Made by a program: the position numbers and the translations under genes | Shown: positions 20 to 63,104 of the stretch, in pieces | Numbering within the stretch: position 1 is the first letter of the stretch | Layout of the letters: each line of letters opens with the position of its first letter | DNA from: a virus | IMG/VR virus record: IMGVR_UViG_3300037312_000927 | Direction: 5' to 3' (one strand) | DNA length: 64,000 nucleotides | Notes under the pieces: generated by a model | What the model saw: only the letters and a program-made list of their open reading frames with translations | Databases searched by the model: none | Told to the model about the DNA's origin: nothing

Positions 20-1366
20 ATGATGGGTAAATGGATCGAAGTCCGTTACGAAATCCACACCCACAACGGCATCGGCCTGTCGAGCACCAACCACAAGCTG
101 GATATCCCGATGTACGAAGGCGTATCTTCGCTGGAATCGCTCGGCCTGACCCGCCTGGATAAGTGCTCAGAAAGCGTGAAAGCCGCCCTGATCGCTCGTG
201 GCGAGAAGTATCTGAAGCTGCACGAGAAGCCGGCGTACGTCATGTCGACTGGCAACATCACCCGCAAGGAAGGTCGCAACACGTACCAGTTCAACGCCAA
301 AGGTCGTGCAATGGTCGACATCCTCGGCCACCGTCAGATGGACACGAACTACTACGCACACTTCCACGTGGCGGATCCGGACAACACGGAATCGGACGAA
401 TACATCCCGATGTCGAAGGTCGACGACTACATCAAGATGAGCTGCAGCCCGTACCTGTACGGTTTCTCGTTCAAGGCCAAGCTGTGGGGTGAGATGAGCG
501 TCGACCAAATCACGGAGATCCAATTCCGTGACGACGTCTACAACAAGCTGGTCCTGGACGATGCCACCAAGCGCATGATCTTCGCCCAAGTCACCGATAC
601 CGGTGATGCGGACACCGATCTTATCGCTGGCAAAGGCGTCGGCTGCATCGCCCTGCTGGAAGGTCCTCCGGGTGTCGGTAAAACCCTGACGGCGGAAGCT
701 GTCTCGGAAACCCTGAAGCGCCCAATCTACTACGTGTCGGTCGGCGAACTGGGTACCAGTGCTCGTTCGCTGGAAAGCAACCTGAAGGAAATCCTGGAAA
801 TCGCAGCTTCCTGGAATGCCATCCTGCTGCTGGACGAAGGTGACGTGTTCCTGGAACGTCGTGACAGCCACGACCTGGAACGCAACGCCATGGTCGCCGT
901 GTTCCTGCGTCTGCTGGAATATTTCCCGGGCATCATGTTCCTGACGACCAACCGTGCCGACAACATCGACCCGGCCTTCGAGTCCCGTATCACGCTCTGC
1001 ATCCACTACAAGGATCTGGAGTCGAGCAGCCGCTTCAAGATCTGGACAAACCTGCTGAATGCTGCTAAGATCAAGGGCATCAACACCGAGTCCATCGATC
1101 GTCTGTCGCACTTCAAGCTGAACGGTCGCCAGATCAAGCAAGTGATCAAGTCGGCCGGTGCACTGGCTCGTTTCGAGAAGCGCAATCTGAACTACGACGA
1201 CTTCATGACGGTCATCCAGCAGAAGGAAGACTTCAAAAAGGCGACGGTCTATCAGCTCGGTAAGGGTCTGACGGACGACAAGGCAGCAGCGCCGAAGGCT
1301 GGCGTGTTCCGCCGTGCGTGGAACGCTCTGGTCAACAACGGCAAGAGCCTGGGCCAAGGCCAGTAA
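20..1366 (+). CDS. AAA+ ATPase (probably 5'-truncated by the window edge)
   Basis: Walker A GPPGVGKT, Walker B LLLDEGD, sensor FLTTNR, AFESRI and lid LNGRQIK. The frame is open back to base 2. Confidence 0.9.
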   Translation: MMGKWIEVRYEIHTHNGIGLSSTNHKLDIPMYEGVSSLESLGLTRLDKCSESVKAALIARGEKYLKLHEKPAYVMSTGNITRKEGRNTYQFNAKGRAMVDILGHRQMDTNYYAHFHVADPDNTESDEYIPMSKVDDYIKMSCSPYLYGFSFKAKLWGEMSVDQITEIQFRDDVYNKLVLDDATKRMIFAQVTDTGDADTDLIAGKGVGCIALLEGPPGVGKTLTAEAVSETLKRPIYYVSVGELGTSARSLESNLKEILEIAASWNAILLLDEGDVFLERRDSHDLERNAMVAVFLRLLEYFPGIMFLTTNRADNIDPAFESRITLCIHYKDLESSSRFKIWTNLLNAAKIKGINTESIDRLSHFKLNGRQIKQVIKSAGALARFEKRNLNYDDFMTVIQQKEDFKKATVYQLGKGLTDDKAAAPKAGVFRRAWNALVNNGKSLGQGQ

Positions 1367-10565: not shown

Positions 10566-12440
10566 ATGTCCCAAACTAACACCCTGATCGCCCGCACTAA
10601 TACCTTCGAGCTGAAGCCCCAGTTCGCCCGTGATAGTTATAAGCTCGGCCACGACAACCAATACCCGGACGAGACCGAAGCAGTCTACACCAACATGACC
10701 TTCCGCAGTGCCAAGCACTTCCGCGTCCCGGACGTCTGCAAGTTCGACGGCAAGGTTGCCTGGCTCGGCCTGCAAGGCACGATGATGGAATACAAGGCCA
10801 TGTGGGACAAGCAATTCTTCAGCCGTCCGTGGAACGAAGTCGAAGCCGAGTACGTCCACCGTACGACACCGTTCATGGGTAAAGCCCCAGACACGACTCG
10901 TCTGAAATCATTGCACGACCTGGGTTATCTGCCGCTGCACGTAAAACAGATACCGGAGGGTAGCTATCTGAACATTGGCGTTCCGGCTTTCACTATCGTC
11001 AATACTCAACCCAACGAAGATCTCTTCGGCTGGCTGACGAATGCAACCGAGACGTACCTGTCAAACGAAAGCTGGAAGCTGCCGACCATCGCTACTATCG
11101 CCACGGCCTACCGTCGCATGTTCGACCACTACGCAGAACTGACCGGGGGTTCGATGGAGTTCGTGGACTGGCAAGGTCACGATTTTTCCGACAGGGGCAT
11201 GTCCGGATACATGGACGCGGCCAAGAACAACGCAGGCCACAACGTCGCCTTCCTGGGCAGCGACTCGGTCTCATCGGCTGACTGGATCACCTGGGCATAC
11301 TTCGCTGAAGAAAACTTCATCGCTGGTAGTGTCCCGGCTTCGGAACACGCTGTCTCCAGTCTGAACATCGCCGTGATCAAAGCCAAGATTAAGGACGACA
11401 TCGTTGCTATCAAGGCCAAAATCCAGGGCGCCGCTGGGCTCGAAGACTGGACCGAAGACGAACTGATGGCCGAAGCAGAATACCGCTTCTGTAAGCGCTA
11501 TATCACCGAAGTCTATCCGACTGGCGTGGCGTCCTACGTGGCTGACACCTATAACTTCTGGCGAGTGATCACCGAGATCGCTGCTCGCCTGAAGGACGAG
11601 ATCCTGGCTCGTCAGCCGGATGCCAGCGGTCTGGCCAAAGTCGTGTTCCGTCCGGATAGTGGTGATCCGGTGGAGATTCTGTGTGGTATCGAGATCCCTG
11701 ACTTCAGCAATGCAGAAGATCTGGAAGCAGCTAAAAGCTGGGCCCAGGAATACTACGTCGAGTTGGAGCGGGAGTCCACGGCGCATGGCCAGTCCGGTAG
11801 CCCTGAAGTCGAAGGATATTTCCGATACCAAGACCATGTGTATTGGATCAAGGTAGAGATCGAGTGGAACCGTCATGATAAACAGTATTACTACATGGAT
11901 GGTAACCGCATTCTGGACGTGAAATCTGCAGTTCTCAGCCCGGAGCAAAAAGGCGCTGTCGAATGCCTGTACGATATCTTCGGTGGTACCGTGACCGAGA
12001 AAGGCTTCAAGCAACTGCACGAACGTGTCAGTCTGATCTATGGTGACTCGATCACCCCGGAACGTGCTGACCAGATCATGCGTCGTTTGATGGCCAAAGG
12101 TTTCGCTTCGACCAACTGGGTTGCCGGTATCGGTTCGTACACCTATCAATACATCACCCGTGACACTTTCGGTGCTGCACTGAAAGCGACCAATGCTGAA
12201 GTCGACGGCGTGGCTCACGAAATCTACAAGGATCCGATCACCGATCCGGGTAAGAAATCGGCCAAGGGCCTGCTGCGTGTCGAATACGAGAACGGTAACT
12301 TCGTTCTCTACGATCAGCAGACGCCGGAACAGGAACGGCAAGGTGTGCTGCAGGACCTGTTCATCAACGGCGAGTTCTTCAACCTGGTGAACTGGACTAC
12401 GGTCCGTGAACGCTTCGGTTTGGTGAAGTTGAACGTGTAA
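10566..12440 (+). CDS. nadV: nicotinamide phosphoribosyltransferase family protein; likely Namat of NARP1
   Basis: DSYKLGH, HDFSDRGMSG, GSVPASEH, SYVADTYN, VFRPDSGDP, LIYGDSIT, KDPITDPGKKSAKG. Confidence 0.93.
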   Translation: MSQTNTLIARTNTFELKPQFARDSYKLGHDNQYPDETEAVYTNMTFRSAKHFRVPDVCKFDGKVAWLGLQGTMMEYKAMWDKQFFSRPWNEVEAEYVHRTTPFMGKAPDTTRLKSLHDLGYLPLHVKQIPEGSYLNIGVPAFTIVNTQPNEDLFGWLTNATETYLSNESWKLPTIATIATAYRRMFDHYAELTGGSMEFVDWQGHDFSDRGMSGYMDAAKNNAGHNVAFLGSDSVSSADWITWAYFAEENFIAGSVPASEHAVSSLNIAVIKAKIKDDIVAIKAKIQGAAGLEDWTEDELMAEAEYRFCKRYITEVYPTGVASYVADTYNFWRVITEIAARLKDEILARQPDASGLAKVVFRPDSGDPVEILCGIEIPDFSNAEDLEAAKSWAQEYYVELERESTAHGQSGSPEVEGYFRYQDHVYWIKVEIEWNRHDKQYYYMDGNRILDVKSAVLSPEQKGAVECLYDIFGGTVTEKGFKQLHERVSLIYGDSITPERADQIMRRLMAKGFASTNWVAGIGSYTYQYITRDTFGAALKATNAEVDGVAHEIYKDPITDPGKKSAKGLLRVEYENGNFVLYDQQTPEQERQGVLQDLFINGEFFNLVNWTTVRERFGLVKLNV

Positions 12441-46657: not shown

Positions 46658-48628
46658 TTAGTTGATTGATATATTATTTGCTGCTATGTTCTGGGCGTGT
46701 GTAGCGACCGAGTCTAATAGAAATACGTTAGTTCTATCATTCGGGTCAAGGATATCTGTGATAGTCCCTGTTTCTACCTCGATTAAGTCTCTGGTATATT
46801 TCTTATAAGTTACATTAGGGGGGTTCTGTATGTTAACGATTCCATTTAACCTTAATTGTGACATCATGTCACTCATTACGAACATATCTCCCAAATCTAG
46901 GCTAGTTAGGTAACTTTGAATTACCGATTCTACTACTGATACATCTGGGACCGTAGAATTATAAGATGTAACTTCAACACTTAGTTTATAGAAATTAAAT
47001 CCTTTTGCCAAGTAGTCTGCACAAAGAACTCTATTGGTAGGGTCATCTAAATAATTTTGAATAGAATCCAAATTCTGGAAATATCCTATATCAAAACTTG
47101 CAGTGCTATTGGCATATGCGGTACCGAAATCTATTACTAAAGACTGTCTTTCACTGAATCCAAAATCATTCCAAGGGGTGACGAACTTAACAGTCATACC
47201 TGTATCAGTGGACACAGTGGATAAAGTAGATGGTAGATCAAAGGTAAATTGATGTTCATTAACTACCTCTTTAACCAACCAAGTCCCATTGAACCCTGCA
47301 GTAGAGGATCCGCTTATGACTACGCTACGACCTGCCACGTATCCGTGGTTAGTTACAGTTACCAACGCATAAGATCCCTGCCCATCGATTTCTGTAATGG
47401 ACTTAGTCTCTAAATAATCATTATAAGAAGTGAAAGTTGCAGAGAATGGTATTTGATCCGCGTCGCTCCCACCAGATATACTGCTTCTACTGAACTCATA
47501 TATCGGGCCAGTAAGATTTACTTTTCCAAATTCGTCTGTAGTTAACTGCACGGTAGATTTTGCTAAAGTATCAGAACAGAAAATATCAACCATACCTCCG
47601 TTGTGCACGGTAATAGGATCATTTATATCTACGATAGAAGGTAGAGCGGTTATAACACCTGGATCAGAGACTAGCGGGAAGTTGAACGTAGAAGTGTCCG
47701 TCACTGTAATAGTGTAATCTCCATTATATCCTGAAGGTATAGCCTCGGATACAGTAATCCTCTGACCAGTCTTGTAACCGTGATCAGGCATGGCCACAAT
47801 AGCTATTGATCCGTTATATACAATAGATGCGGGAGTTCTCGGAATGCTAGGCTCGAATACCACTCTGATTTGATCCCTGATCATTTCCGCATCCCCCATA
47901 CCTACTACCAGTAGGCGATCGATATAGTTGAACTCTGCTTTGAGATTAGAGTCCACGCTTGGTACATTGATGAGGTTACGGGTGGAGATTGCGGTCTTAG
48001 ATCTATTTATAAATTCAGAATTAGTCTCGCTATTTATACTCTCACTCTTAAGGTAGTTAATTTCTGCCCTCAAGAAGTAAGGATCGAAGTTACTGAAGTA
48101 CAACAAGGAACCCGAGGAAATGTTATAATCCGTACCTTCTTTCTCGGCTACGAGCTCAATATCTATGTAATATTCATTACTATATGAGTCGAACGTCATT
48201 GCGTCAGCAGAGTACGAAATTGACTCTGAGGGTAAAAACTTAATGGTGTTATCGGTAGAGAAGTAAGTTGACGAGCTGACGCTGACATTCTTTTTACGGG
48301 CGAAATAAAGCCTAGCGCTGATAACGCTCTTGATACCAATCTTACGAGTAAGGAACCAGTTACTCAGAATAGAGTCCAGAACTTCTGTGGGCGTGCTATC
48401 ATCTACCCCGTTAAGAGTATTCTGAGTGAAGTACTGATCAACCCCCTTCTTAACCAACGTTAAAAGTAGGGCACTAGGTCTTAGCACCAGGTCCCGAAGA
48501 CCCGTACCTTCACGTAAATCTAAGTCTGGGAATTGGGCTTCCAGTATCTGCTTACATAGCAGTTCCGCCTCTAGGATTTCCTGAGAGGTCGGTTGAAGCC
48601 CGGGGATTACTGAATATAAGTCTGACAT
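46658..48628 (-). CDS. baseplate J-like wedge protein
   Basis: DLREGTGLRDLVLRP, AEKEGTDYNI, ETNSEFINR; follows the gp25-like gene. Confidence 0.7.
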   Translation of the reverse strand: MSDLYSVIPGLQPTSQEILEAELLCKQILEAQFPDLDLREGTGLRDLVLRPSALLLTLVKKGVDQYFTQNTLNGVDDSTPTEVLDSILSNWFLTRKIGIKSVISARLYFARKKNVSVSSSTYFSTDNTIKFLPSESISYSADAMTFDSYSNEYYIDIELVAEKEGTDYNISSGSLLYFSNFDPYFLRAEINYLKSESINSETNSEFINRSKTAISTRNLINVPSVDSNLKAEFNYIDRLLVVGMGDAEMIRDQIRVVFEPSIPRTPASIVYNGSIAIVAMPDHGYKTGQRITVSEAIPSGYNGDYTITVTDTSTFNFPLVSDPGVITALPSIVDINDPITVHNGGMVDIFCSDTLAKSTVQLTTDEFGKVNLTGPIYEFSRSSISGGSDADQIPFSATFTSYNDYLETKSITEIDGQGSYALVTVTNHGYVAGRSVVISGSSTAGFNGTWLVKEVVNEHQFTFDLPSTLSTVSTDTGMTVKFVTPWNDFGFSERQSLVIDFGTAYANSTASFDIGYFQNLDSIQNYLDDPTNRVLCADYLAKGFNFYKLSVEVTSYNSTVPDVSVVESVIQSYLTSLDLGDMFVMSDMMSQLRLNGIVNIQNPPNVTYKKYTRDLIEVETGTITDILDPNDRTNVFLLDSVATHAQNIAANNISIN

Positions 48629-48679
48629 ATGGATAAGGGTTAAGTGGTTTATTGACTAGTTTAACTGTTTACCTTGTGC

Positions 48680-49180
48680 TCAATCCCCGTTCAGTTTCAA
48701 GTCTAACTGAGGGAATGGTATAGCTACTTGGGCTTTTGCTCCAGCTTTTGTCAAAATACGAAGATATATTGTCACAGATTCTGAACCGGTATCTAGGCCT
48801 AGAATGGTCACCGAGTCTAATTGGCTGGCAACATCGGTGCCGATGTTCAGGATACGTTTGACCTGGCTTTCGGCAGAGCGTATCTCCGTTACGAGATCCG
48901 CCATGAACACGGAATCGTCTTCGGTAATGTTAGCGTTTACTGTAAGTGTAGGGAAATTGGTACCCTGGTTAGGTGATAAAACGTTAGACCCTAAACTAGT
49001 AAAAAGAATTTTTACAAACATTTGAGCCACTTTTTGAATCCCCGTCACTTTTCTAGGAGTGTCGTCTATATCAAAATCCAATAGCCCTTCTGGAAACCCA
49101 TCTCCATACTTTATAAGTAGCAGATCGTTTAATCCCCCTTGAGCTAGGTTAGTGGAAATACCTAATCTAGTACTACTCAT
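48680..49180 (-). CDS. gp25-like baseplate wedge protein
   Basis: VTGIQKVAQ.F.K.L.T.LGS...P..GT.F pattern. Confidence 0.65.
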   Translation of the reverse strand: MSSTRLGISTNLAQGGLNDLLLIKYGDGFPEGLLDFDIDDTPRKVTGIQKVAQMFVKILFTSLGSNVLSPNQGTNFPTLTVNANITEDDSVFMADLVTEIRSAESQVKRILNIGTDVASQLDSVTILGLDTGSESVTIYLRILTKAGAKAQVAIPFPQLDLKLNGD

Positions 49181-49578
49181 GGTGCATCTCCCTCCACATA
49201 AATTCCACCTAACATGCTAACCCAGAAGACTTTCATATTCGCATAATAGTCACTTTCACGGTTAGCTTCAGCAGAAGCGTCTGTGTAGTAATCACTCTTC
49301 CTTTTACTTGAAATATCAAACTCTCTAATAAGTGCCGCCATTTGGTGAACATTCTCAATAGCAGCACCGTTCTCATAACTGGCCGAATCATCAGCCCGTA
49401 TATAGGTCATGCGATGAAGCTCCGAATAATCCAGGGCATCAATAACGTCACTGAACTCAGGAGGTTCAACGCTCCCAGTATCGTCTTTCAAATACTTGTA
49501 CAAGTCATTATAGTACCCTGCCAATTTATCATTGGAGGTCTCTGCTTGTCCTAGTGCGCTGTTGGAATCTAATGGCAT
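49177..49578 (-). CDS. hypothetical protein
   Basis: Coupled ORF. Confidence 0.65.
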   Translation of the reverse strand: MPLDSNSALGQAETSNDKLAGYYNDLYKYLKDDTGSVEPPEFSDVIDALDYSELHRMTYIRADDSASYENGAAIENVHQMAALIREFDISSKRKSDYYTDASAEANRESDYYANMKVFWVSMLGGIYVEGDAP

Positions 49579-50303
49579 TAATACATCCCGCTTTCAGATT
49601 TGATACGCATAATCTTTTTTTCAAGGTTCTTTTTGAGGTAGTTGAGTCGGTTGACATTTACCCCCATCTTCTCCGCTAGAGCAGTTGAACTAATGAGTTT
49701 AACATTGTCCAGGATAATTTTTTCCTCAGGGGTTAGTTGGCTCATCAGATGTTCCATCAGAATTGCACCCTCATTAAACTGAGTGTACTCTCCCGGTTTT
49801 TCACTGCTACTCTCGATAAGGTCATTATATAGAGAGTTCTTGAACTTCACGGTCTGAGGCTTGGACCATCCTAGTTTCTTCGATAATTCTTCATCCGTAG
49901 GATCACGGTTCAGCTCATCTCTAAGAGAAGTGATGGCATGGTTATAATCATGGAATTTAAGCTGCAGATTCTCGGGGAGGCGGACTGCGTTTTGGTACTT
50001 ATAATTCATACGGCGGACCTTCTGCAGATAGTTACTTACATGAGTAGCCAATGCTGACCCTTTTGAAGGGTCATAAGTTTGAATCGCCTTGATAGTCCAT
50101 TTTTTAGCTTCAGCAGTTAGGGCTGCACTTGGTAGGCTACCGCTAGCCCGCTTCACTTCGGCACGGATAACTGGCATAAGAGACTCCATAAGAGCCCCTA
50201 AATGCCTTTTATCACCAGTGCTTTTCCAGCTCTCATATGCCTGTTGGTCTTTGTTTCTAAGTTCGTTAAAATATTGAGCTGTTGTTAAGTTCGGATCGGT
50301 CAT
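49578..50303 (-). CDS. RNA polymerase sigma factor (FliA/sigma28-like)
   Basis: AIQTYDPSKGSALATH (sigma2), AVRLPE...LRDELNRDPTDEELSKKLGW (sigma3), LAEKMGVNVNRL (sigma4 HTH). Confidence 0.85.
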   Translation of the reverse strand: MTDPNLTTAQYFNELRNKDQQAYESWKSTGDKRHLGALMESLMPVIRAEVKRASGSLPSAALTAEAKKWTIKAIQTYDPSKGSALATHVSNYLQKVRRMNYKYQNAVRLPENLQLKFHDYNHAITSLRDELNRDPTDEELSKKLGWSKPQTVKFKNSLYNDLIESSSEKPGEYTQFNEGAILMEHLMSQLTPEEKIILDNVKLISSTALAEKMGVNVNRLNYLKKNLEKKIMRIKSESGMY

Positions 50304-53500: not shown

Positions 53501-53752
53501 CACACTAATATTGGAAGGATCTACTCCACATGCGTAATCTCTCATACTAAGTATAGGCGCATAGAGGCCATTGCCAGAATCACCCGTGCTTTTAAGCAGG
53601 CTGTTTTTGGCTACATCTGAAGTGTTTTTCAGTATGTTCGGTACTGAAGTCCCTGCAGTAGCTAGGGTTGTTACAGTCATTTTCGACAGCGCCGTGTTGT
53701 TAGACATGACGCTGCCAGTGATTTTATCGGAGAGGATATTAAGAAGTGACAT
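50501..53752 (-). CDS. large baseplate hub-like structural protein
   Basis: 1083 aa; LYIEGVQVPFESISI...SIQIPP and FNPYVVPGYP...VTHSI hub-like motifs. Confidence 0.6.
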   Translation of the reverse strand: MSLLNILSDKITGSVMSNNTALSKMTVTTLATAGTSVPNILKNTSDVAKNSLLKSTGDSGNGLYAPILSMRDYACGVDPSNISVYSSYATQVISGIDSNVLSSLPGSDNTLFDIQRYTKESLSSGVDSYSQIINKTNSALYSDATNIGVAKLVDTSRVADSSISTAYSTTNNYLNSTISQINSSVIEKAMADKANAVASDTALPLPVVTSGTFSTSSPSPYAKTISIKGVEEGLPVSAEDDSTDVLVQDVSLYIEGVQVPFESISISQSIGQLPGASIQIPPNSGLMDIIRGYQPKVHVFYEDRITGGYRLLFWGHIIACNYHYSQAEGGASISFECVHKNALLRQLTFEWSGGGAAHAIQGANLTDNNPDQASVQINNFNSEYSLARALQGITGVQSDPKDLISPSNSNVLTADPTMLDKRFEALKERMVGMPTTIMNMWNQVKMEVYADEKLNVIFNKMFVPLMEDGIRFFDRLSGHPVLEDQIDAGRVPYCNDSSRPELNKNDVMLPPAFRVGIQSAVQTQLVVNNLKSSLGFSGELANFYDLFANFYYGIEYEMLTLSSPGEVPIDPSVDADPDTPEDWVKVDKMAVETIVKPQIPFYYSPICNVILPNMFHTVDVNQNESDVPTRITAVGTAASQAADNPNLMGINYRAPQSIRESIALGRKVLGASDNSNEPTLRDTTGSSFNIPGKYEMGRGIAHRKIAMPNWLSHFVKDQDDNRASNSDSEFPEKGSVEAKNLLDLHYAWIQKYGYSSLVDDSGNVTVSRDNSKDTLDPYSIKSNIMAYERLLFATADYEYAKAVASSRNGSVYGLFNPYVVPGYPMDIIDGSPNHPCFHAMCASVTHSISARGIGTTIGFVAASTYTELSNYYMQPIHPWLKTALSLVNVERGSSLTSGGDTATDASTAISGDTTLDKASLLGITPDPAYDSNTGDITSIQQGIIDNPRAKEIADKFYRSVLGVCSADPGLIYNFETGQVSPVARHNGNWTEGSSHSDRSPKNGGEGNPNLTGVGNLRLVARQIEGKKSIESKFGLKFIDLTEQNYNGTSVTYQNKVAVTDMTLEPGASMFLDYSEISSLVNGD

Positions 53753-54596
53753 TGGAGTATAGACAGTATAGGGCTAGCATGTAAAGAGCCTTCTCCAGAG
53801 GATCTTTAATGGAGTCTATATATCCTCTATAATCCTCGGGTATCACCTGTAACTCATTTACGTATTCGCTAATTAATTGTAATCTATTTTCAGTTAACAA
53901 GCTAGTTAGCAAAAGACTACGTATAGGTAAAGGTTCGGATGGCAAAGCTTTCATGCCAAGTACCGATCCCGAAAAAGTCTTCGCAAGCCATACTACGAAT
54001 GGGAACGTGCTAAATTCTACGCATCTTACGATAATAGGATACTGAGAATTTGGAGTAGGAATAACAGTAAGCACTCCCTCACTCAGCTCGTAGTCAACAC
54101 CTTCCGTCAATAACTGCCCGCTAGAATAAACATAAGCTTTATCGTAAGTTCCGTTTTCAGTAGACAAAGTGTATTCAGAGACTTCTTCTTTAGTAGTAAT
54201 AATTTCGGCGTTTACAAGAAACTCTGGTATGACCTTGAGTAAGTCGTTTACTTTTGGAGGGATCTGATCAGGGTGACTTGCCGAATAACATTTTACACAA
54301 ATTCCATTTTTGCTAATACATGAGCTGGTGTGCCTAGTTGCAACCTCATATATTCCCTGACTTAAAAGGTATTCGATCCTATCTCTCGTAAGGGCCTCGT
54401 CTGTTGCTAATTCAATAATACCCTCGGATTCAAATGTGAGGGTTTCGAATCTACCCAAAGTAGTTCCACAGTCATTCTCCACAATAGGTAAATTAGGATT
54501 AAAAATACTTAACCCTAAATTCACCATATCGGGATTATCAGCGGGGATTTCATCGAAAATATTTTCAAATAACAATAGTGCTGAATATGTTCTCAC
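53739..54596 (-). CDS. protein with an RNA polymerase beta-prime Zn-binding-domain-like N-terminus
   Basis: IVENDCGT ... EVATRHTSSCISKNGICVKCY, compared with RpoC VTEDDCGT ... [20 protein letters not shown]. Confidence 0.65.
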   Translation of the reverse strand: MRTYSALLLFENIFDEIPADNPDMVNLGLSIFNPNLPIVENDCGTTLGRFETLTFESEGIIELATDEALTRDRIEYLLSQGIYEVATRHTSSCISKNGICVKCYSASHPDQIPPKVNDLLKVIPEFLVNAEIITTKEEVSEYTLSTENGTYDKAYVYSSGQLLTEGVDYELSEGVLTVIPTPNSQYPIIVRCVEFSTFPFVVWLAKTFSGSVLGMKALPSEPLPIRSLLLTSLLTENRLQLISEYVNELQVIPEDYRGYIDSIKDPLEKALYMLALYCLYSNVTS

Positions 54597-60319: not shown

Positions 60320-61972
60320 TTAATTGTATCCTGCGAAATTAGCTATGTCAAATAGGCTATGTTCCGACTTTGTTTCATCTACGGTAGTAAAGTTACCGGC
60401 CACTACCATCTGCGCTATGTTAGCAAATACTATTGAGTGGAACCAATCATCAAGGGCGCCATCATCTTTTCTGTACAGGCGTTTTCCGCTTAGACTTTCT
60501 TCTTCGAATATGCATAAGGCCTCTTGCCACACATCACAAGTAAGATCCCAACACGGGGTCTCTAATTTAGTTCTACCTATCTTAGCCTTAAGCATCATTG
60601 TATCCATAGCTTGAGTCCGGTCTGCGGCGTAGTAACCCCCTATCTTGTCCCATCGTAAAGTGTTCTTTGCACTTACGTAATTTACCATTGCTACTTTCTC
60701 ATCTCCGATGTGACTTTTGAACAATTGCCCTTGAAGAACACCGACTCCACGATCTGAGCCAATCATAGAACATTCAAACTGGTGATACAGTTGCTCTACC
60801 CTGGCGACCTGTTCAAGTATGTCTATGCCGTCCATGCGTTGTGAATATAACAGGTAGGCTTTACCAGCGTAGTCATAACCCAGAACGCTTACATTAGTGT
60901 AACTATTCGTTGATCCAGAGACACTCCAATCCACTCCAATGGTGGTCATGTAAATACCTCGACTATCTCTTGGAAAACCCTTATCCCATTCACGCTTCTC
61001 GGGATTACAACAGGCCATGGCCTCCCGGATGGATAGAATTCTACCACCTACCCCTGAAGGTAAGCCGAAGACCTCATTAGCGACTTTCTGTGCAGAGTAG
61101 GCTCCAGGTGCACCGATGTTACACTTTTCTCTAAGCTCTCTCCACTTTTTGGGTTTATTACGAGCGGGGAATATCAGCTGAGGTAGATGGAATCCGAAAT
61201 GATATTTCTCGGAGGGTTTTCCTGCAACCCACTGCCCCGTGGACATATTTAAAACTTTACCGCAGTATAGGCACCCTGGACCGTCGGGATTTTGAATCAT
61301 CTTCATGCAAGAGTCAAAATCTATGGGAATATTATATTTTCCACAGTGAGAACATTTAACAACCCACTCCAATTGATTACTGGCCTTAAAGAGAATGTTC
61401 AGGGTATTATTCTCTGTCTTAGCAGTTCCGGTATGTCGTATGAACCCATAATCAGAGGCGCCCATAGTTTCATGAATAATAGGGATGGCCTCAATGCTGA
61501 TATCCTGGCACTCATCGTAGAAGTTCTGATCGCTTGCAACCCCCCGGATACGGTCGGCGTCCTGTTCAGTTTGTGCGTACCCTAAGATTATACGTGCGCC
61601 TGTATTCAATGTTTTCTCGAATACATTTTTCTTATCTCTAGCACTAACGTAGTGTTTTTTAACAATAGGGGACTCAAAAAATGCATCCAGATATGCCGAA
61701 GAAAACCGTGAAGTTTGCTGTGCCAAAGGACTTATAAATAAGCTGACGAAGTGAGGCCTTAATATGCCATTTACTACTAACATGCCAGCCAATCCTACTG
61801 ATTTCCCGATTTGACGACCAGCAGAAATTGTAAGTTTAGGAGGGCTACAGTCATATATGAGTTTGAACGGGGCATATTCATCTAGATTAAGTGGCTTTCC
61901 TTTAAGCTGTAAAATTGCTACAGCCAACTCACTAGGTAAGAGTTTTAATGGTTGTTTTTTATCATTACTCAT
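60320..61972 (-). CDS. terL: terminase large subunit (gpA-like)
   Basis: AGRQIGKS Walker A, RIRG...YDECQD Walker B, GTAK, CSHC/CLYC Zn motif, IGVDW and DDWFH nuclease motifs. Confidence 0.85.
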   Translation of the reverse strand: MSNDKKQPLKLLPSELAVAILQLKGKPLNLDEYAPFKLIYDCSPPKLTISAGRQIGKSVGLAGMLVVNGILRPHFVSLFISPLAQQTSRFSSAYLDAFFESPIVKKHYVSARDKKNVFEKTLNTGARIILGYAQTEQDADRIRGVASDQNFYDECQDISIEAIPIIHETMGASDYGFIRHTGTAKTENNTLNILFKASNQLEWVVKCSHCGKYNIPIDFDSCMKMIQNPDGPGCLYCGKVLNMSTGQWVAGKPSEKYHFGFHLPQLIFPARNKPKKWRELREKCNIGAPGAYSAQKVANEVFGLPSGVGGRILSIREAMACCNPEKREWDKGFPRDSRGIYMTTIGVDWSVSGSTNSYTNVSVLGYDYAGKAYLLYSQRMDGIDILEQVARVEQLYHQFECSMIGSDRGVGVLQGQLFKSHIGDEKVAMVNYVSAKNTLRWDKIGGYYAADRTQAMDTMMLKAKIGRTKLETPCWDLTCDVWQEALCIFEEESLSGKRLYRKDDGALDDWFHSIVFANIAQMVVAGNFTTVDETKSEHSLFDIANFAGYN

Positions 61973-63104
61973 TTAAGTATTCTAATCTATATTTATTTCT
62001 AAACACTTTCGTAGGGTTTCTGAGCAACCGGTGGATACTAGGTCTAGAAATATCTAAAAACTCCCCGCAATCCTTTACCTTATCAAAAATCTTAGAAACT
62101 CCAGTGATTATGTCTACGACTCTAACTTTACTGCAGTTAGAATCCGTAATATACGGTTTAAATTCAGTCCCGTCGTCGTATTTCCAAAACATTCCTTTAG
62201 ATTTATTAGTACCCTTCCTACACTTTAGAGCGTCAATAATGCACGAGTAAGGATATCCTTGAGATTCAAGGAGGCTTAAATAATTGCCTGTGTAACGCTC
62301 TAAAACATCTCCCTTTTCGTTCAACCTCAATACTGGTTTAGTCCTAACTTTATTCAGAGGGGCGCCTGGGAAAGAACCTACTAACGAAAATATACGTTTT
62401 TTAACAGTGAAATATTTACGATTCAGATGTCTCGTAAACATCTTCATAGTTACTGACAGCTCGTTGAGTAAGGTGTTTAAATCTTTATGTTCATTAACCC
62501 TGTTACCTAAAAGATCCCACTCGTAAATAGTATAATTCTTAGAAAACCAGAATCTAATCCAAGATGCATCCGATGGCGTAAAGTCTTCTTTTAGAATATC
62601 CTCATTTTTTCCGGAAAATCTAACCTTGAAATCTGTTAGGGTTCGCTCAAAGTTCATGCAATTATATGTAATGGTTTGACCATCTATACATAAATTCTCA
62701 GAGGCCTCTTTAACTGAACTATAGGACTTGATCAATTTCCCTTCATTAGAATAAACATAAATAGCATCCGTAGCCTCTACAGTACTTTCTACAAACTTTG
62801 CCAAATTATACCGATAGCCCCCGCTATCAATCATCTCCTGTTCGAGGATCCTACTCTCGGCTTCAGTCTCTGTAACTTTATAAGTTATTGAGAAATTATC
62901 CGCACCATGCTTCTTAAAACTGTGTAACAGAAGTTTGTTACAATGATCCCCGGATCTAAGCTGTGCGGCATGAGCGATCAATCTCTTGTAAATGTTCTTG
63001 GAACTACCTACGTATTTGTCCCCGGTAACGTTGTTAATAATTTCATAAACACCACACTGTTTAGGGGCGTCTTTATAATTTTTATATTCAAGTACTCTAT
63101 CCAT
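61965..63104 (-). mobile_element. free-standing GIY-YIG homing endonuclease with NUMOD1-like repeats
   Basis: GVYEIINNVTGDKYVGSSKNIYKR; repeated IYVY/IYEW...F/Y.S.KEA DNA-binding modules. Confidence 0.88.

Follow-up and report, generated by a model that had tools for sequence, protein, structure and literature searches.

A homolog of the C-terminal zinc module of RNA polymerase β′ encoded in a phage tail operon

The zinc-bound module at the C terminus of the RNA polymerase (RNAP) β′ subunit has a real homolog in a 285-residue protein encoded in a phage tail operon. Few proteins are as conserved as the catalytic subunits of multisubunit RNAPs, whose domains rarely occur outside polymerases. 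The open reading frame (ORF) lies in a 64,000-nucleotide stretch of viral DNA (IMG/VR record IMGVR_UViG_3300037312_000927), referred to here as the window (Table 1). We consider the protein to be, more likely than not, an exapted structural zinc module that forms part of the tail hub or baseplate of the virion. In a search of the literature, we found no earlier description of RMOD or RpoC-like tail proteins.

TABLE 1 Positions of the ORF, its domains, and neighboring genes in the window
Feature	Coordinates	Strand	Description
Terminase	60320-61972		phrog_675 (E 2.5e-47)
Tape-measure-position protein, 1018 aa	56286..59342	minus	Gly/Ala/Met-rich; downstream of terminase
Upstream gene, 488 aa	54593..56059	minus	Translationally coupled to ORF; Mu gp43-like "DNA circularisation"/tail-tube-initiator lead
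Whole ORF, 285 aa	53739..54596	minus	GTG start shares GTGA with stop of upstream gene
Residues 1-32	54501..54596	minus	Two N-terminal helices (H4-9, H22-32); conserved R2, L8, E11 (AF2 model m1132905a893e, alignments A1 and A2)
Residues 33-124	54225..54500	minus	β′-type Zn cluster with inserted RMOD-like α+β domain; putative ligands C43, C93, C100, C103
C43 codon	54470-54468	minus
C93 codon	54320-54318	minus
C100 codon	54299-54297	minus
C103 codon	54290-54288	minus
Residues 125-196	54009..54224	minus	Inserted β-sandwich of tail-fiber/adaptor type; missing in short family members
Residues 197-285	53742..54008	minus	C-terminal helical domain; motifs WLAxT(Y/F)SGSxLG and DPLE(K/R)AL
Downstream gene, 1083 aa	50501..53752	minus	Overlaps ORF; probably an enlarged baseplate hub
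Sigma-70-family factor	49578-50303	minus	phrog_351 (E 2.9e-9); Sigma70_r3
gp25-like baseplate wedge	48680-49180	minus	phrog_43 (E 2.7e-4)
gp6/J-like baseplate wedge	46658-48628	minus	phrog_6 (E 2.7e-10)

A β′ zinc module outside the polymerase

The plus-strand frame across the ORF is full of stops, and the last 14 nt of the ORF are shared with the start of the downstream gene. Cys43 (IVENDCGT) and C93, C100, and C103 (RHTSSCISKNGICVKCY) were found at exactly the positions given in a preliminary description of this DNA, and the motif YVYSSGQLLTEGVDYEL occupies residues 155-171. The pattern C-x40-80-C-x6-C-x2-C occurred a single time in the six-frame translation of the whole window, and all four cysteines were invariant in 58 long homologs with identities as low as 34%; the pattern is therefore far beyond chance. 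They were also invariant in a mixed alignment of long and short members (A3), which included gp7 of Salmonella phage Arash, gp8 of Vibrio phage D181, and distant variants of 205 to 240 aa, and C103 was at least 90% conserved in an alignment of 24 short variants (A6). The other two cysteines of the ORF (192 and 278) are not conserved. Homolog counts came to 57 proteins of ~285 aa and at least 550 representative clusters (50% identity) at an E value of ≤1e-3. Judged from the sequence, the protein would bind zinc.

The N-terminal part of the protein is a true homolog of the second-zinc region of β′, which in E. coli has its site formed by C814, C888, C895, and C898. A search of the family profile against PDB sequences matched β′ at an E value of 2e-7. 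With the single ORF sequence the best E value was only 0.011 (β′ chains made up 23 of 25 weak matches), and the ORF stayed below the threshold of Pfam PF04998, with no Pfam family at an E value of ≤0.1. Aligned by hhalign with the C-terminal β′ pieces (β′-C) of related phages, the family gave a colinear match over 92 columns (Prob 97%; E = 1.2e-10; 29% identity). The family cysteines aligned with those of β′ in both hmmsearch and hhalign.

Structure comparison, proposed in the preliminary description, gave the same answer, with fold Z scores between 7 and 8.7. In two independent AF2 models (pLDDT 91 and 93), the core overlays the Zn/RMOD region of β′. The ORF model aligned with β′ at Z scores of 7.2 to 8.0 (86 to 104 aa; 3.1 to 3.8 Å), with residues 34..232 placed on Mycobacterium tuberculosis (Mtb) β′ 881..1161. 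For the model of a short variant (residues 36..159 on 884..1160), Mtb β′ ranked first among 48,161 chains in an exhaustive VIA search (Z = 8.7; rmsd, 2.5 Å; 85 aa; 26% identity), and the next unrelated chain had a Z score of 5.2. The top Foldseek matches were all β′ for both models, and PF04998 proteins filled 10 of 10 rows in an ESM-Atlas shape search. MoeA was also matched structurally (Z = 6.7), consistent with the published RMOD superfamily (Iyer et al. 2021, PMC7824862).

With the C-terminal module of β′ (the PF04998 region) the protein shares the arrangement DCxT ... C-x6-C-x2-C(Y/F), a conserved Arg ahead of the cluster, a Gly within it, the same α+β fold (Z up to 8.7; 20 to 29% identity), and some post-jaw helices. 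In the AF2 model, the first ~35 residues of the C-terminal domain superpose on post-jaw segments of β′. Unlike β′, the ORF encodes a stand-alone protein of 285 (or ~220) aa in a tail operon, and it lacks the bridge helix, trigger loop, jaw, and other Rpb1 domains. The structural alignments skip β′ residues ~1000-1130 (Mtb numbering), and a trigger-loop motif of the AAQSxGEPGTQ type was not found in the ORF sequence. The N-terminal helices and the C-terminal three-helix bundle are specific to the family; this last bundle had no specific structural match.

The preliminary description also had the zinc motif followed by a tail-type β domain. The domain type held up, but residues 125-196 are a lineage-specific insertion outside the family core, to which Arash gp7, D181 gp8, and the other short variants contribute no aligned residues. 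As modeled, the domain resembles the N-terminal adaptor or XD-type β-sandwiches of fibers and tailspikes. It superposed on CBA120 TSP4 181-251 (Z = 8.0), a T5/DT57C neck protein, and T7 gp17-N (Z = 7.4), with an overall range of Z scores of 7.3 to 8.2 (rmsd, 2.1 to 3.0 Å; 64 to 70 residues); the match to 7rej_A had a Z score of 8.0 (rmsd, 2.5 Å; 70 aa; 23% identity). A profile match to the N-terminal region of K1 depolymerase (E = 2.7e-4) and BFVD matches that include tail fiber proteins point the same way. Tail, neck, or baseplate chains were matched by this domain only, not by the core. In contrast to T7 gp17-N and the CBA120 XD-type domains, the β-sandwich sits inside a β′-derived scaffold and not at the N terminus of a fiber, and its docking function is only putative. 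It has no sequence similarity to the tailspike/fiber proteins of the window, so no specific docking partner can be proposed from sequence. Orthologs in the same genomic slot carry Laminin_G_3 lectin domains.

Gene neighborhood and virion data

The ORF had been placed in a baseplate operon, and this assignment was upheld: the gp25-like and gp6/J-like wedge genes (46658..49180) lie in the same block, which can therefore be read as a baseplate module. The gene order (tape-measure-like, 75 aa, Mu gp43-like, ORF, hub-like, 65 aa, sigma, 133 aa, gp25-like, and gp6-like) is identical in the window, 14 metagenomic loci, Arash, and D181, usually with the 4-nt overlap between the ORF and its upstream gene. 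The sigma gene starts 3.4 kb downstream of the ORF, as described before, and is three genes downstream in every one of these loci. For the 1018-aa protein, the tape-measure assignment is inferred from position because it has no family match of its own. An Atlas feature search with the 488-aa upstream protein returned PF07157 (DNA_circ_N) in 26 of 30 matches and PF23980 in one, which we treat as a lead only; its PHROG matches to hub and tape-measure proteins were weak, and a PDB sequence search gave no useful matches. The 1083-aa downstream protein had a weak Atlas lead to GpP-like_1st and no Pfam, PHROG, or PDB sequence match, and the corresponding Arash protein, gp8, carries the annotation "cell wall hydrolase and structural protein." A complex prediction for the ORF family and the upstream 488-aa family scored 0.00, which counts neither for nor against binding.

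Arash gp7 (WGL32458.1) and D181 VPHD181_0008 (gp8) are orthologs of the ORF protein, with the same slot, the four cysteines, and the C-terminal motifs. They differ from it in length (221 to 226 aa), share 24 to 31% identity with it, and lack the middle β-sandwich. Their annotations go no further than "structural protein" or "hypothetical protein" and make no mention of β′. In Arash, the one relative with proteomic data, LC-MS/MS of purified virions identified gp7 (7 unique peptides, 77% coverage, and 202 spectra), gp6 is likewise a virion protein, and RNAP β/β′ and sigma were abundant in the same virion preparations (PMC10585845). The Arash "virion" proteome comprises 116 proteins, metabolic enzymes among them (PMC10585845), and lysate carry-over is therefore possible. 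From these data we computed 0.9 spectra per residue for gp7, 0.6 to 1.0 for gp6, gp8, and gp13, and 2.0 to 2.3 for RNAP and sigma.

The split phage polymerase and the origin of the module

The phages of this clade are little-studied myophages of roughly 170 to 190 kb. The preliminary description saw no multisubunit RNAP, which is correct for the window but not for the clade: all three complete relatives (Arash, D181, and one IMG/VR genome, G002) encode a split bacterial-type RNAP with an intact zinc site. Their β′-C pieces are Arash gp216, a 610-aa ORF in D181, and a 611-aa ORF in G002, and the β-β′N fusion gene comes after the portal gene. We rejected the idea that our ORF supplies a zinc piece missing from the split phage β′, as each of the three β′-C pieces keeps DC(G/H)T ... 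C-x6-C-x2-C. PF04998 was not found in the closest IMG/VR contig (114 kb; 71% complete) or in four other fragments, all of them incomplete, and a search of genome contigs with the phage β′-C alignment returned no related loci. A "moraphage" (PMC12619734) was set aside as a different lineage without RNAP.

The earlier suggestion of a captured β′ fragment stands as far as derivation from β′ is concerned, but the likely donor is the phage β′-C gene and not the host. The distance from the first cysteine to the cluster is 50 in the ORF, 52 to 53 in phage β′-C, and 82 in Thermus. The family HMM scored D181 β′-C at 45 bits and Arash β′-C at 39 bits, compared with ≤33.7 bits for any solved bacterial β′. 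G002 β′-C, at 29 bits, fell under the best bacterial β′; two of the three phage pieces thus outscore every solved bacterial β′, and the third keeps the donor assignment tentative. Since a search for longer β′ proteins gave only four sequences, too few and too biased for a donor tree, the argument about origin draws on cysteine spacing and bit scores only. On these two lines, the module probably arose by duplication of the clade's own β′-C gene, the direction being the one that they suggest. The ORF family and β′-C have the compact Zn-RMOD region in common and occur in the same genomes. They differ in that β′-C, encoded ~40 to 130 kb from the ORF-family gene, comprises the complete Rpb1_4/5 piece (~610 aa) and includes a trigger loop (AAQSxSEVLTQ), whereas the ORF is the module alone.

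A structural role and its alternatives

Among the options raised in the preliminary description, a repurposed structural zinc module is the one to which the lectin and β-sandwich accretions and the Arash virion proteomics point; accretions of this type are typical of exposed virion proteins. The core would be a reduced, noncatalytic paralog of the β′ C-terminal module, consisting of the four-Cys zinc cluster, the inserted RMOD-type α+β domain, and packing helices. After duplication of the β′-C gene, the bridge helix, trigger loop, and jaw would have been lost. The zinc-stapled module may then act as a rigid scaffold joining the Mu gp43-like protein and the hub protein, and the site of the β′ trigger loop and jaw may have become an insertion point for display domains: a tail-fiber-type β-sandwich in this phage and a concanavalin-like lectin domain, or none, in relatives. 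A baseplate location with this scaffold and display role is what we infer from the combined observations. Counting against this reading, no solved baseplate protein was found to resemble the core, and no family in Pfam or PHROG covers it.

A transcription role is possible, if rather unlikely. The protein could be a virion-borne accessory of phage transcription, in which the module binds packaged RNAP or sigma, either as a tether or chaperone at the tail hub for delivery or in RNAP assembly without α/ω; its place in the tail block would then come only from the interleaving of transcription genes. RNAP and sigma genes are indeed interleaved with structural genes in this clade (the β-β′N gene by the portal gene, the sigma gene three genes downstream of the ORF), and their products occur in the virion preparation, so a position in the structural block does not exclude such a role. 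Homology to β′ also fits, as does the presence of β′-C in all three complete genomes with the ORF family, but this co-occurrence is confined to one clade and hence gives no independent evidence. Lectin or tail-fiber-type accretions would be unexpected on an internal RNAP partner, the normalized spectral counts of Arash gp7 are like those of its baseplate neighbors and unlike those of RNAP and sigma, and the Zn-RMOD region of RNAP is, to our knowledge, not a sigma contact.

T4 gp51 is a reported helper of hub assembly, and the ORF protein might similarly be a nonvirion chaperone for the hub or tape-measure complex rather than a stable part of the particle. Translational coupling to hub-region genes, the absence of the fold among solved baseplate components, and the overinclusive Arash proteome agree with this, but an ortholog recovered at 77% coverage in amounts like those of structural neighbors does not, and display-type accretions make little sense on a transient chaperone; we regard a chaperone as improbable. 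Least credible, and highly improbable, is a mimic or decoy that would compete with host β′ for β, ω, or a secondary-channel factor and, perhaps once injected, interfere with the assembly or regulation of the host RNAP. In its favor, the β′ region to which the module is homologous has a zinc site that Markov et al. reportedly found in 1999 to be required for E. coli RNAP core assembly, and a phage that brings its own RNAP would gain from turning off that of the host. Against it, the module shows the compact spacing of phage β′-C and is no farther from that piece than from bacterial β′. The gene is part of a late structural operon, accretions of lectin and β-sandwich domains do not suit such a role, and the tail-gene surroundings stay fixed across a family whose phages come from widely differing environments.

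The preferred reading of an exapted structural module makes this an undescribed, moderately surprising case of domain reuse, in which a whole β′ submodule (Zn cluster plus RMOD) persists as an independent protein family in a tail-hub operon. A protein entered in databases as "hypothetical" or "structural" thereby acquires a name and a structure that can be tested, and the case is a clean example of how parts of a polymerase can be exapted. It also draws attention to a group of phages whose virion-assembly and transcription genes are unusually entangled. We think it doubtful that the β′-derived module is a virion-delivered RNAP partner, one that docks the packaged phage RNAP-sigma to the tail hub for co-entry with DNA or, once injected, serves as a β′ decoy that hinders assembly of the host RNAP. 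If it were, a structural tail gene would be mechanistically tied to transcription takeover in a clade with a bacterial-type RNAP and sigma in the particle, and a module that has kept its binding to polymerase partners would point to a new route of such takeover.

Sequence, family, and fold of the ORF

The only ORF at window positions 53739 to 54596 encodes a 285-aa protein on the minus strand; on the plus strand, stop codons close all reading there. The gene starts with a GTG that shares bases with the TGA stop of the 488-aa gene lying upstream (junction sequence CTGTGAGA), and its last 14 nt are shared with the 1083-aa gene downstream, at that gene's ATG. The GTG start was confirmed by the N-terminus MRTYS, which is conserved among homologues. 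The residues listed in the preliminary description were found in place (IVENDC43GT, RHTSSC93ISKNGIC100VKC103Y, and YVYSSGQLLTEGVDYEL at residues 155 to 171), and the spaced four-Cys pattern occurred only once in a six-frame translation of the 64-kb window.

A word-indexed search returned 57 homologues, nearly all of which had 284 to 288 aa; no Pfam domain accounted for any of them. By exhaustive profile search, the family comprised 550 representative clusters (E ≤ 1e-3). The cysteine set proposed to bind zinc (C43, C93, C100, and C103) was kept in all 58 long sequences (identity down to 34%), as were T45, G48, R88, and G98. The four cysteines were also invariant in a mixed alignment with the orthologues of Salmonella phage Arash (gp7) and Vibrio phage D181 (gp8) and with short variants of 205 to 240 aa; in a 24-sequence alignment of the short variants alone, C103 was at least 90% conserved. 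Since these variants lack residues from about 125 to 196, the family core consists of an N-domain (1 to 124) and a C-domain (197 to 285), and the β domain is an insertion.

The resemblance to the RNA polymerase (RNAP) β′ subunit is real, and the suggested likeness to the second Zn site of RpoC was borne out. The single ORF sequence gave 25 weak PDB matches (best E, 0.011), 23 of which were β′ chains at the second-Zn region. With the family profile, the β′ match in PDB sequences reached an E value of 2e-7, aligning ORF residues 56 to 124 with Mycobacterium smegmatis β′ 930 to 998 across the C-x6-C-x2-CY cluster. Against the C-terminal β′ pieces (β′-C) of two related phages, hhalign aligned ORF residues 32 to 124 with β′-C 218 to 314, with all four cysteines in register (probability, 97%; E = 1.2e-10; 29% identity). 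We found no link between this family and β′ in Pfam or PHROG families, database annotations, or the literature.

The predicted fold also superposes on the β′ Zn region. Top PDB matches of the AF2 model (pLDDT, 91.3; pTM, 0.86) in Foldseek were all β′, and VIA-align gave Z scores of 7.2 to 8.0 over 86 to 104 residues (3.1 to 3.8 Å; 20 to 26% identity), with ORF residues 34 to 232 set against Mycobacterium tuberculosis β′ 881 to 1161. A second model, made independently for a short variant of 219 aa (pLDDT, 93.3), had β′ in all 50 best Foldseek rows. When it was searched exhaustively against 48,161 chains, M. tuberculosis β′ ranked first (Z = 8.7; 2.5 Å; 85 residues; 26% identity), with the next unrelated chain at a Z score of 5.2. 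An ESM-Atlas shape search with the ORF returned PF04998 proteins in 10 of 10 rows (150 to 166 residues aligned over ORF 8 to 274). Secondary matches to MoeA N-domains (Z = 6.7) fit the RMOD superfamily, which unites the β′ C-terminal module, MoeA-N, and also the C-terminal domain found in basic amino acid (ornithine) decarboxylases; in RNAP, this α+β domain is inserted within the Zn cluster (Iyer et al. 2021, PMC7824862). The ORF does not represent a piece of polymerase, because the trigger helices, trigger loop, and jaw of β′ were skipped in the structural alignments of the ORF and the short variant, the trigger-loop motif is absent from the ORF sequence, and the Pfam PF04998 threshold was not reached.

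Relation to the phage-encoded polymerase

The earlier statement that the window holds no multisubunit RNAP is true but misleading. The family belongs to a clade of roughly 170- to 190-kb phages that encode a bacterial-type RNAP (Arash, D181, and G002, the last a 169.7-kb genome with terminal repeats and the sole complete IMG/VR relative), and β′-C was present in all three complete genomes carrying the family. Neither an α nor an ω gene was seen in the stretches of sequence that were read. Every phage β′-C piece retains its own Zn site, which rules out the ORF as a split-off piece of phage β′ and makes it an extra copy.

The first Cys lies 50 residues from the cluster in the ORF, 52 to 53 in phage β′-C, and 82 in Thermus β′; in Escherichia coli and M. 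tuberculosis β′, this distance is about 74 to 77 residues by the established numbering. The family HMM scored 45 bits with D181 β′-C and 39 bits with Arash β′-C, and all solved bacterial β′ chains scored 33.7 bits or less. Because of the shared compact spacing and these scores, sequence comparison favors the phage β′-C gene as the likely donor of the module. G002 β′-C scored only 29 bits and cellular β′ sequences were too few for a tree, so this direction of transfer is likely but unproven. The HMM had a second, very weak match near the β′-C C-terminus (G-x-L-x6-I-x2-L-x2-GI-x-V motif; Arash gp216 508 to 535, D181 β′-C 509 to 542), which may be a second RMOD-like element or chance.

Gene order and virion association

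The gene order around the ORF was fixed in the window, 14 metagenomic or IMG/VR loci, Arash, and D181 (see the table). In each of the relatives examined, a sigma-70-family gene lies within the baseplate block, as the third gene after the ORF and the second before the gp25-like wedge gene. The 488-aa upstream protein had no clear Pfam or PHROGs recognition; Atlas features point to a Mu gp43-like DNA_circ_N protein or tube initiator, as a lead only. Its C-terminal half is rich in Ser/Thr/Asn. A weak Atlas lead, likewise only a lead, connects the 1083-aa protein to a GpP-type hub; its Arash counterpart carries the annotation cell wall hydrolase.

Conserved gene order around the ORF and other features (window unless a locus is named)
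Order	Feature	Coordinates (strand)	Remarks
1	Large terminase	60320-61972	
2	Two small genes		
3	Protein, about 1000 aa		Tape-measure position
4	Protein, about 75 aa		
5	Protein, about 470-580 aa	54593-56059 (-)	488 aa in window
6	ORF	53739-54596 (-)	
7	Protein, about 760-1130 aa		1083 aa in window
8	Protein, about 68 aa		
9	Sigma factor	49578-50303 (-); L010 14289-15017; L027 6785-7528	phrog_351; Arash gp10
10	Protein, about 130 aa		
11	gp25-like wedge protein		phrog_43
12	gp6-like wedge protein		phrog_6
	GIY-YIG/NUMOD homing-endonuclease-like gene	61965-63104 (-)	Overlaps start of large terminase gene; pair also in 94%-identical metagenomic relative L009
	Fibre-like protein (1289 aa), then four proteins of 554-642 aa	30364-41740 (-)	N-termini of the four match tailspike or depolymerase PHROGs
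	Nicotinamide phosphoribosyltransferase	10566-12440 (+)	phrog_448, E 3e-163; auxiliary NAD-salvage gene
	Arash gp206	L005 5094-9671	1525-aa fusion of β and N-terminal β′ domains, directly after portal gene
	Arash gp216	L005 14442-16262	Separate β′-C, 606 aa
	D181 β′-C	L007 949-2778	610 aa
	G002 β′-C	L024 943-2775	611 aa

In the over-inclusive proteome of purified Arash particles (116 proteins), gp7 was represented by 202 spectra and 7 unique peptides (77% coverage), the sigma factor (gp10) had 100% coverage, and RNAP pieces topped the spectral counts (PMC10585845). By spectra per residue, a crude measure that we calculated from that table and annotated lengths, gp7 (about 0.9) was like gp6, gp8, gp13, and gp14 (0.6 to 1.0); the RNAP pieces and sigma had 2.0 to 2.3.

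Added domains and function

The middle domain (125 to 196), modeled by AF2 as a β-sandwich, resembles neck proteins as well as the adaptor domains at the N-termini of tail fibres and tailspikes. Among its matches were CBA120 TSP4 181 to 251 (Z = 8.0; 23% identity), T7 gp17-N, and T5/DT57C. Its earlier designation as a tail-type β domain thus holds for the fold, but the domain is no part of the family core. Orthologues in the same slot bear concanavalin-type Laminin_G_3 domains; the lectin domain occupies the same insertion point in one orthologue (P0119) and is C-terminal in another (P0091). Such β-sandwich and lectin additions are typical of exposed virion parts. Judging from the alignment ranges, the insertion point lies just past the Zn cluster, where β′ runs into the trigger helices and jaw. 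The fibre-like and four tailspike-like proteins of the window suggest a multi-tailspike receptor-binding set, which might in principle dock on the XD-like middle domain; no sequence similarity was found between this domain and those proteins.

In our view, the ORF product is probably a structural protein of the baseplate or tail hub, in which a β′-derived module, stapled by a predicted zinc, would serve as a scaffold to which a variable display domain is fastened. That it works with packaged RNAP and sigma seems unlikely, a role kept in play because the transcription genes of this clade are found among structural ones and the proteins they encode turn up in virion preparations. An assembly chaperone acting transiently is more doubtful, and a host-RNAP decoy is very improbable. 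The exaptation of a domain into a virion protein is a known kind of event, of which this putative β′-derived scaffold would be a further variant.
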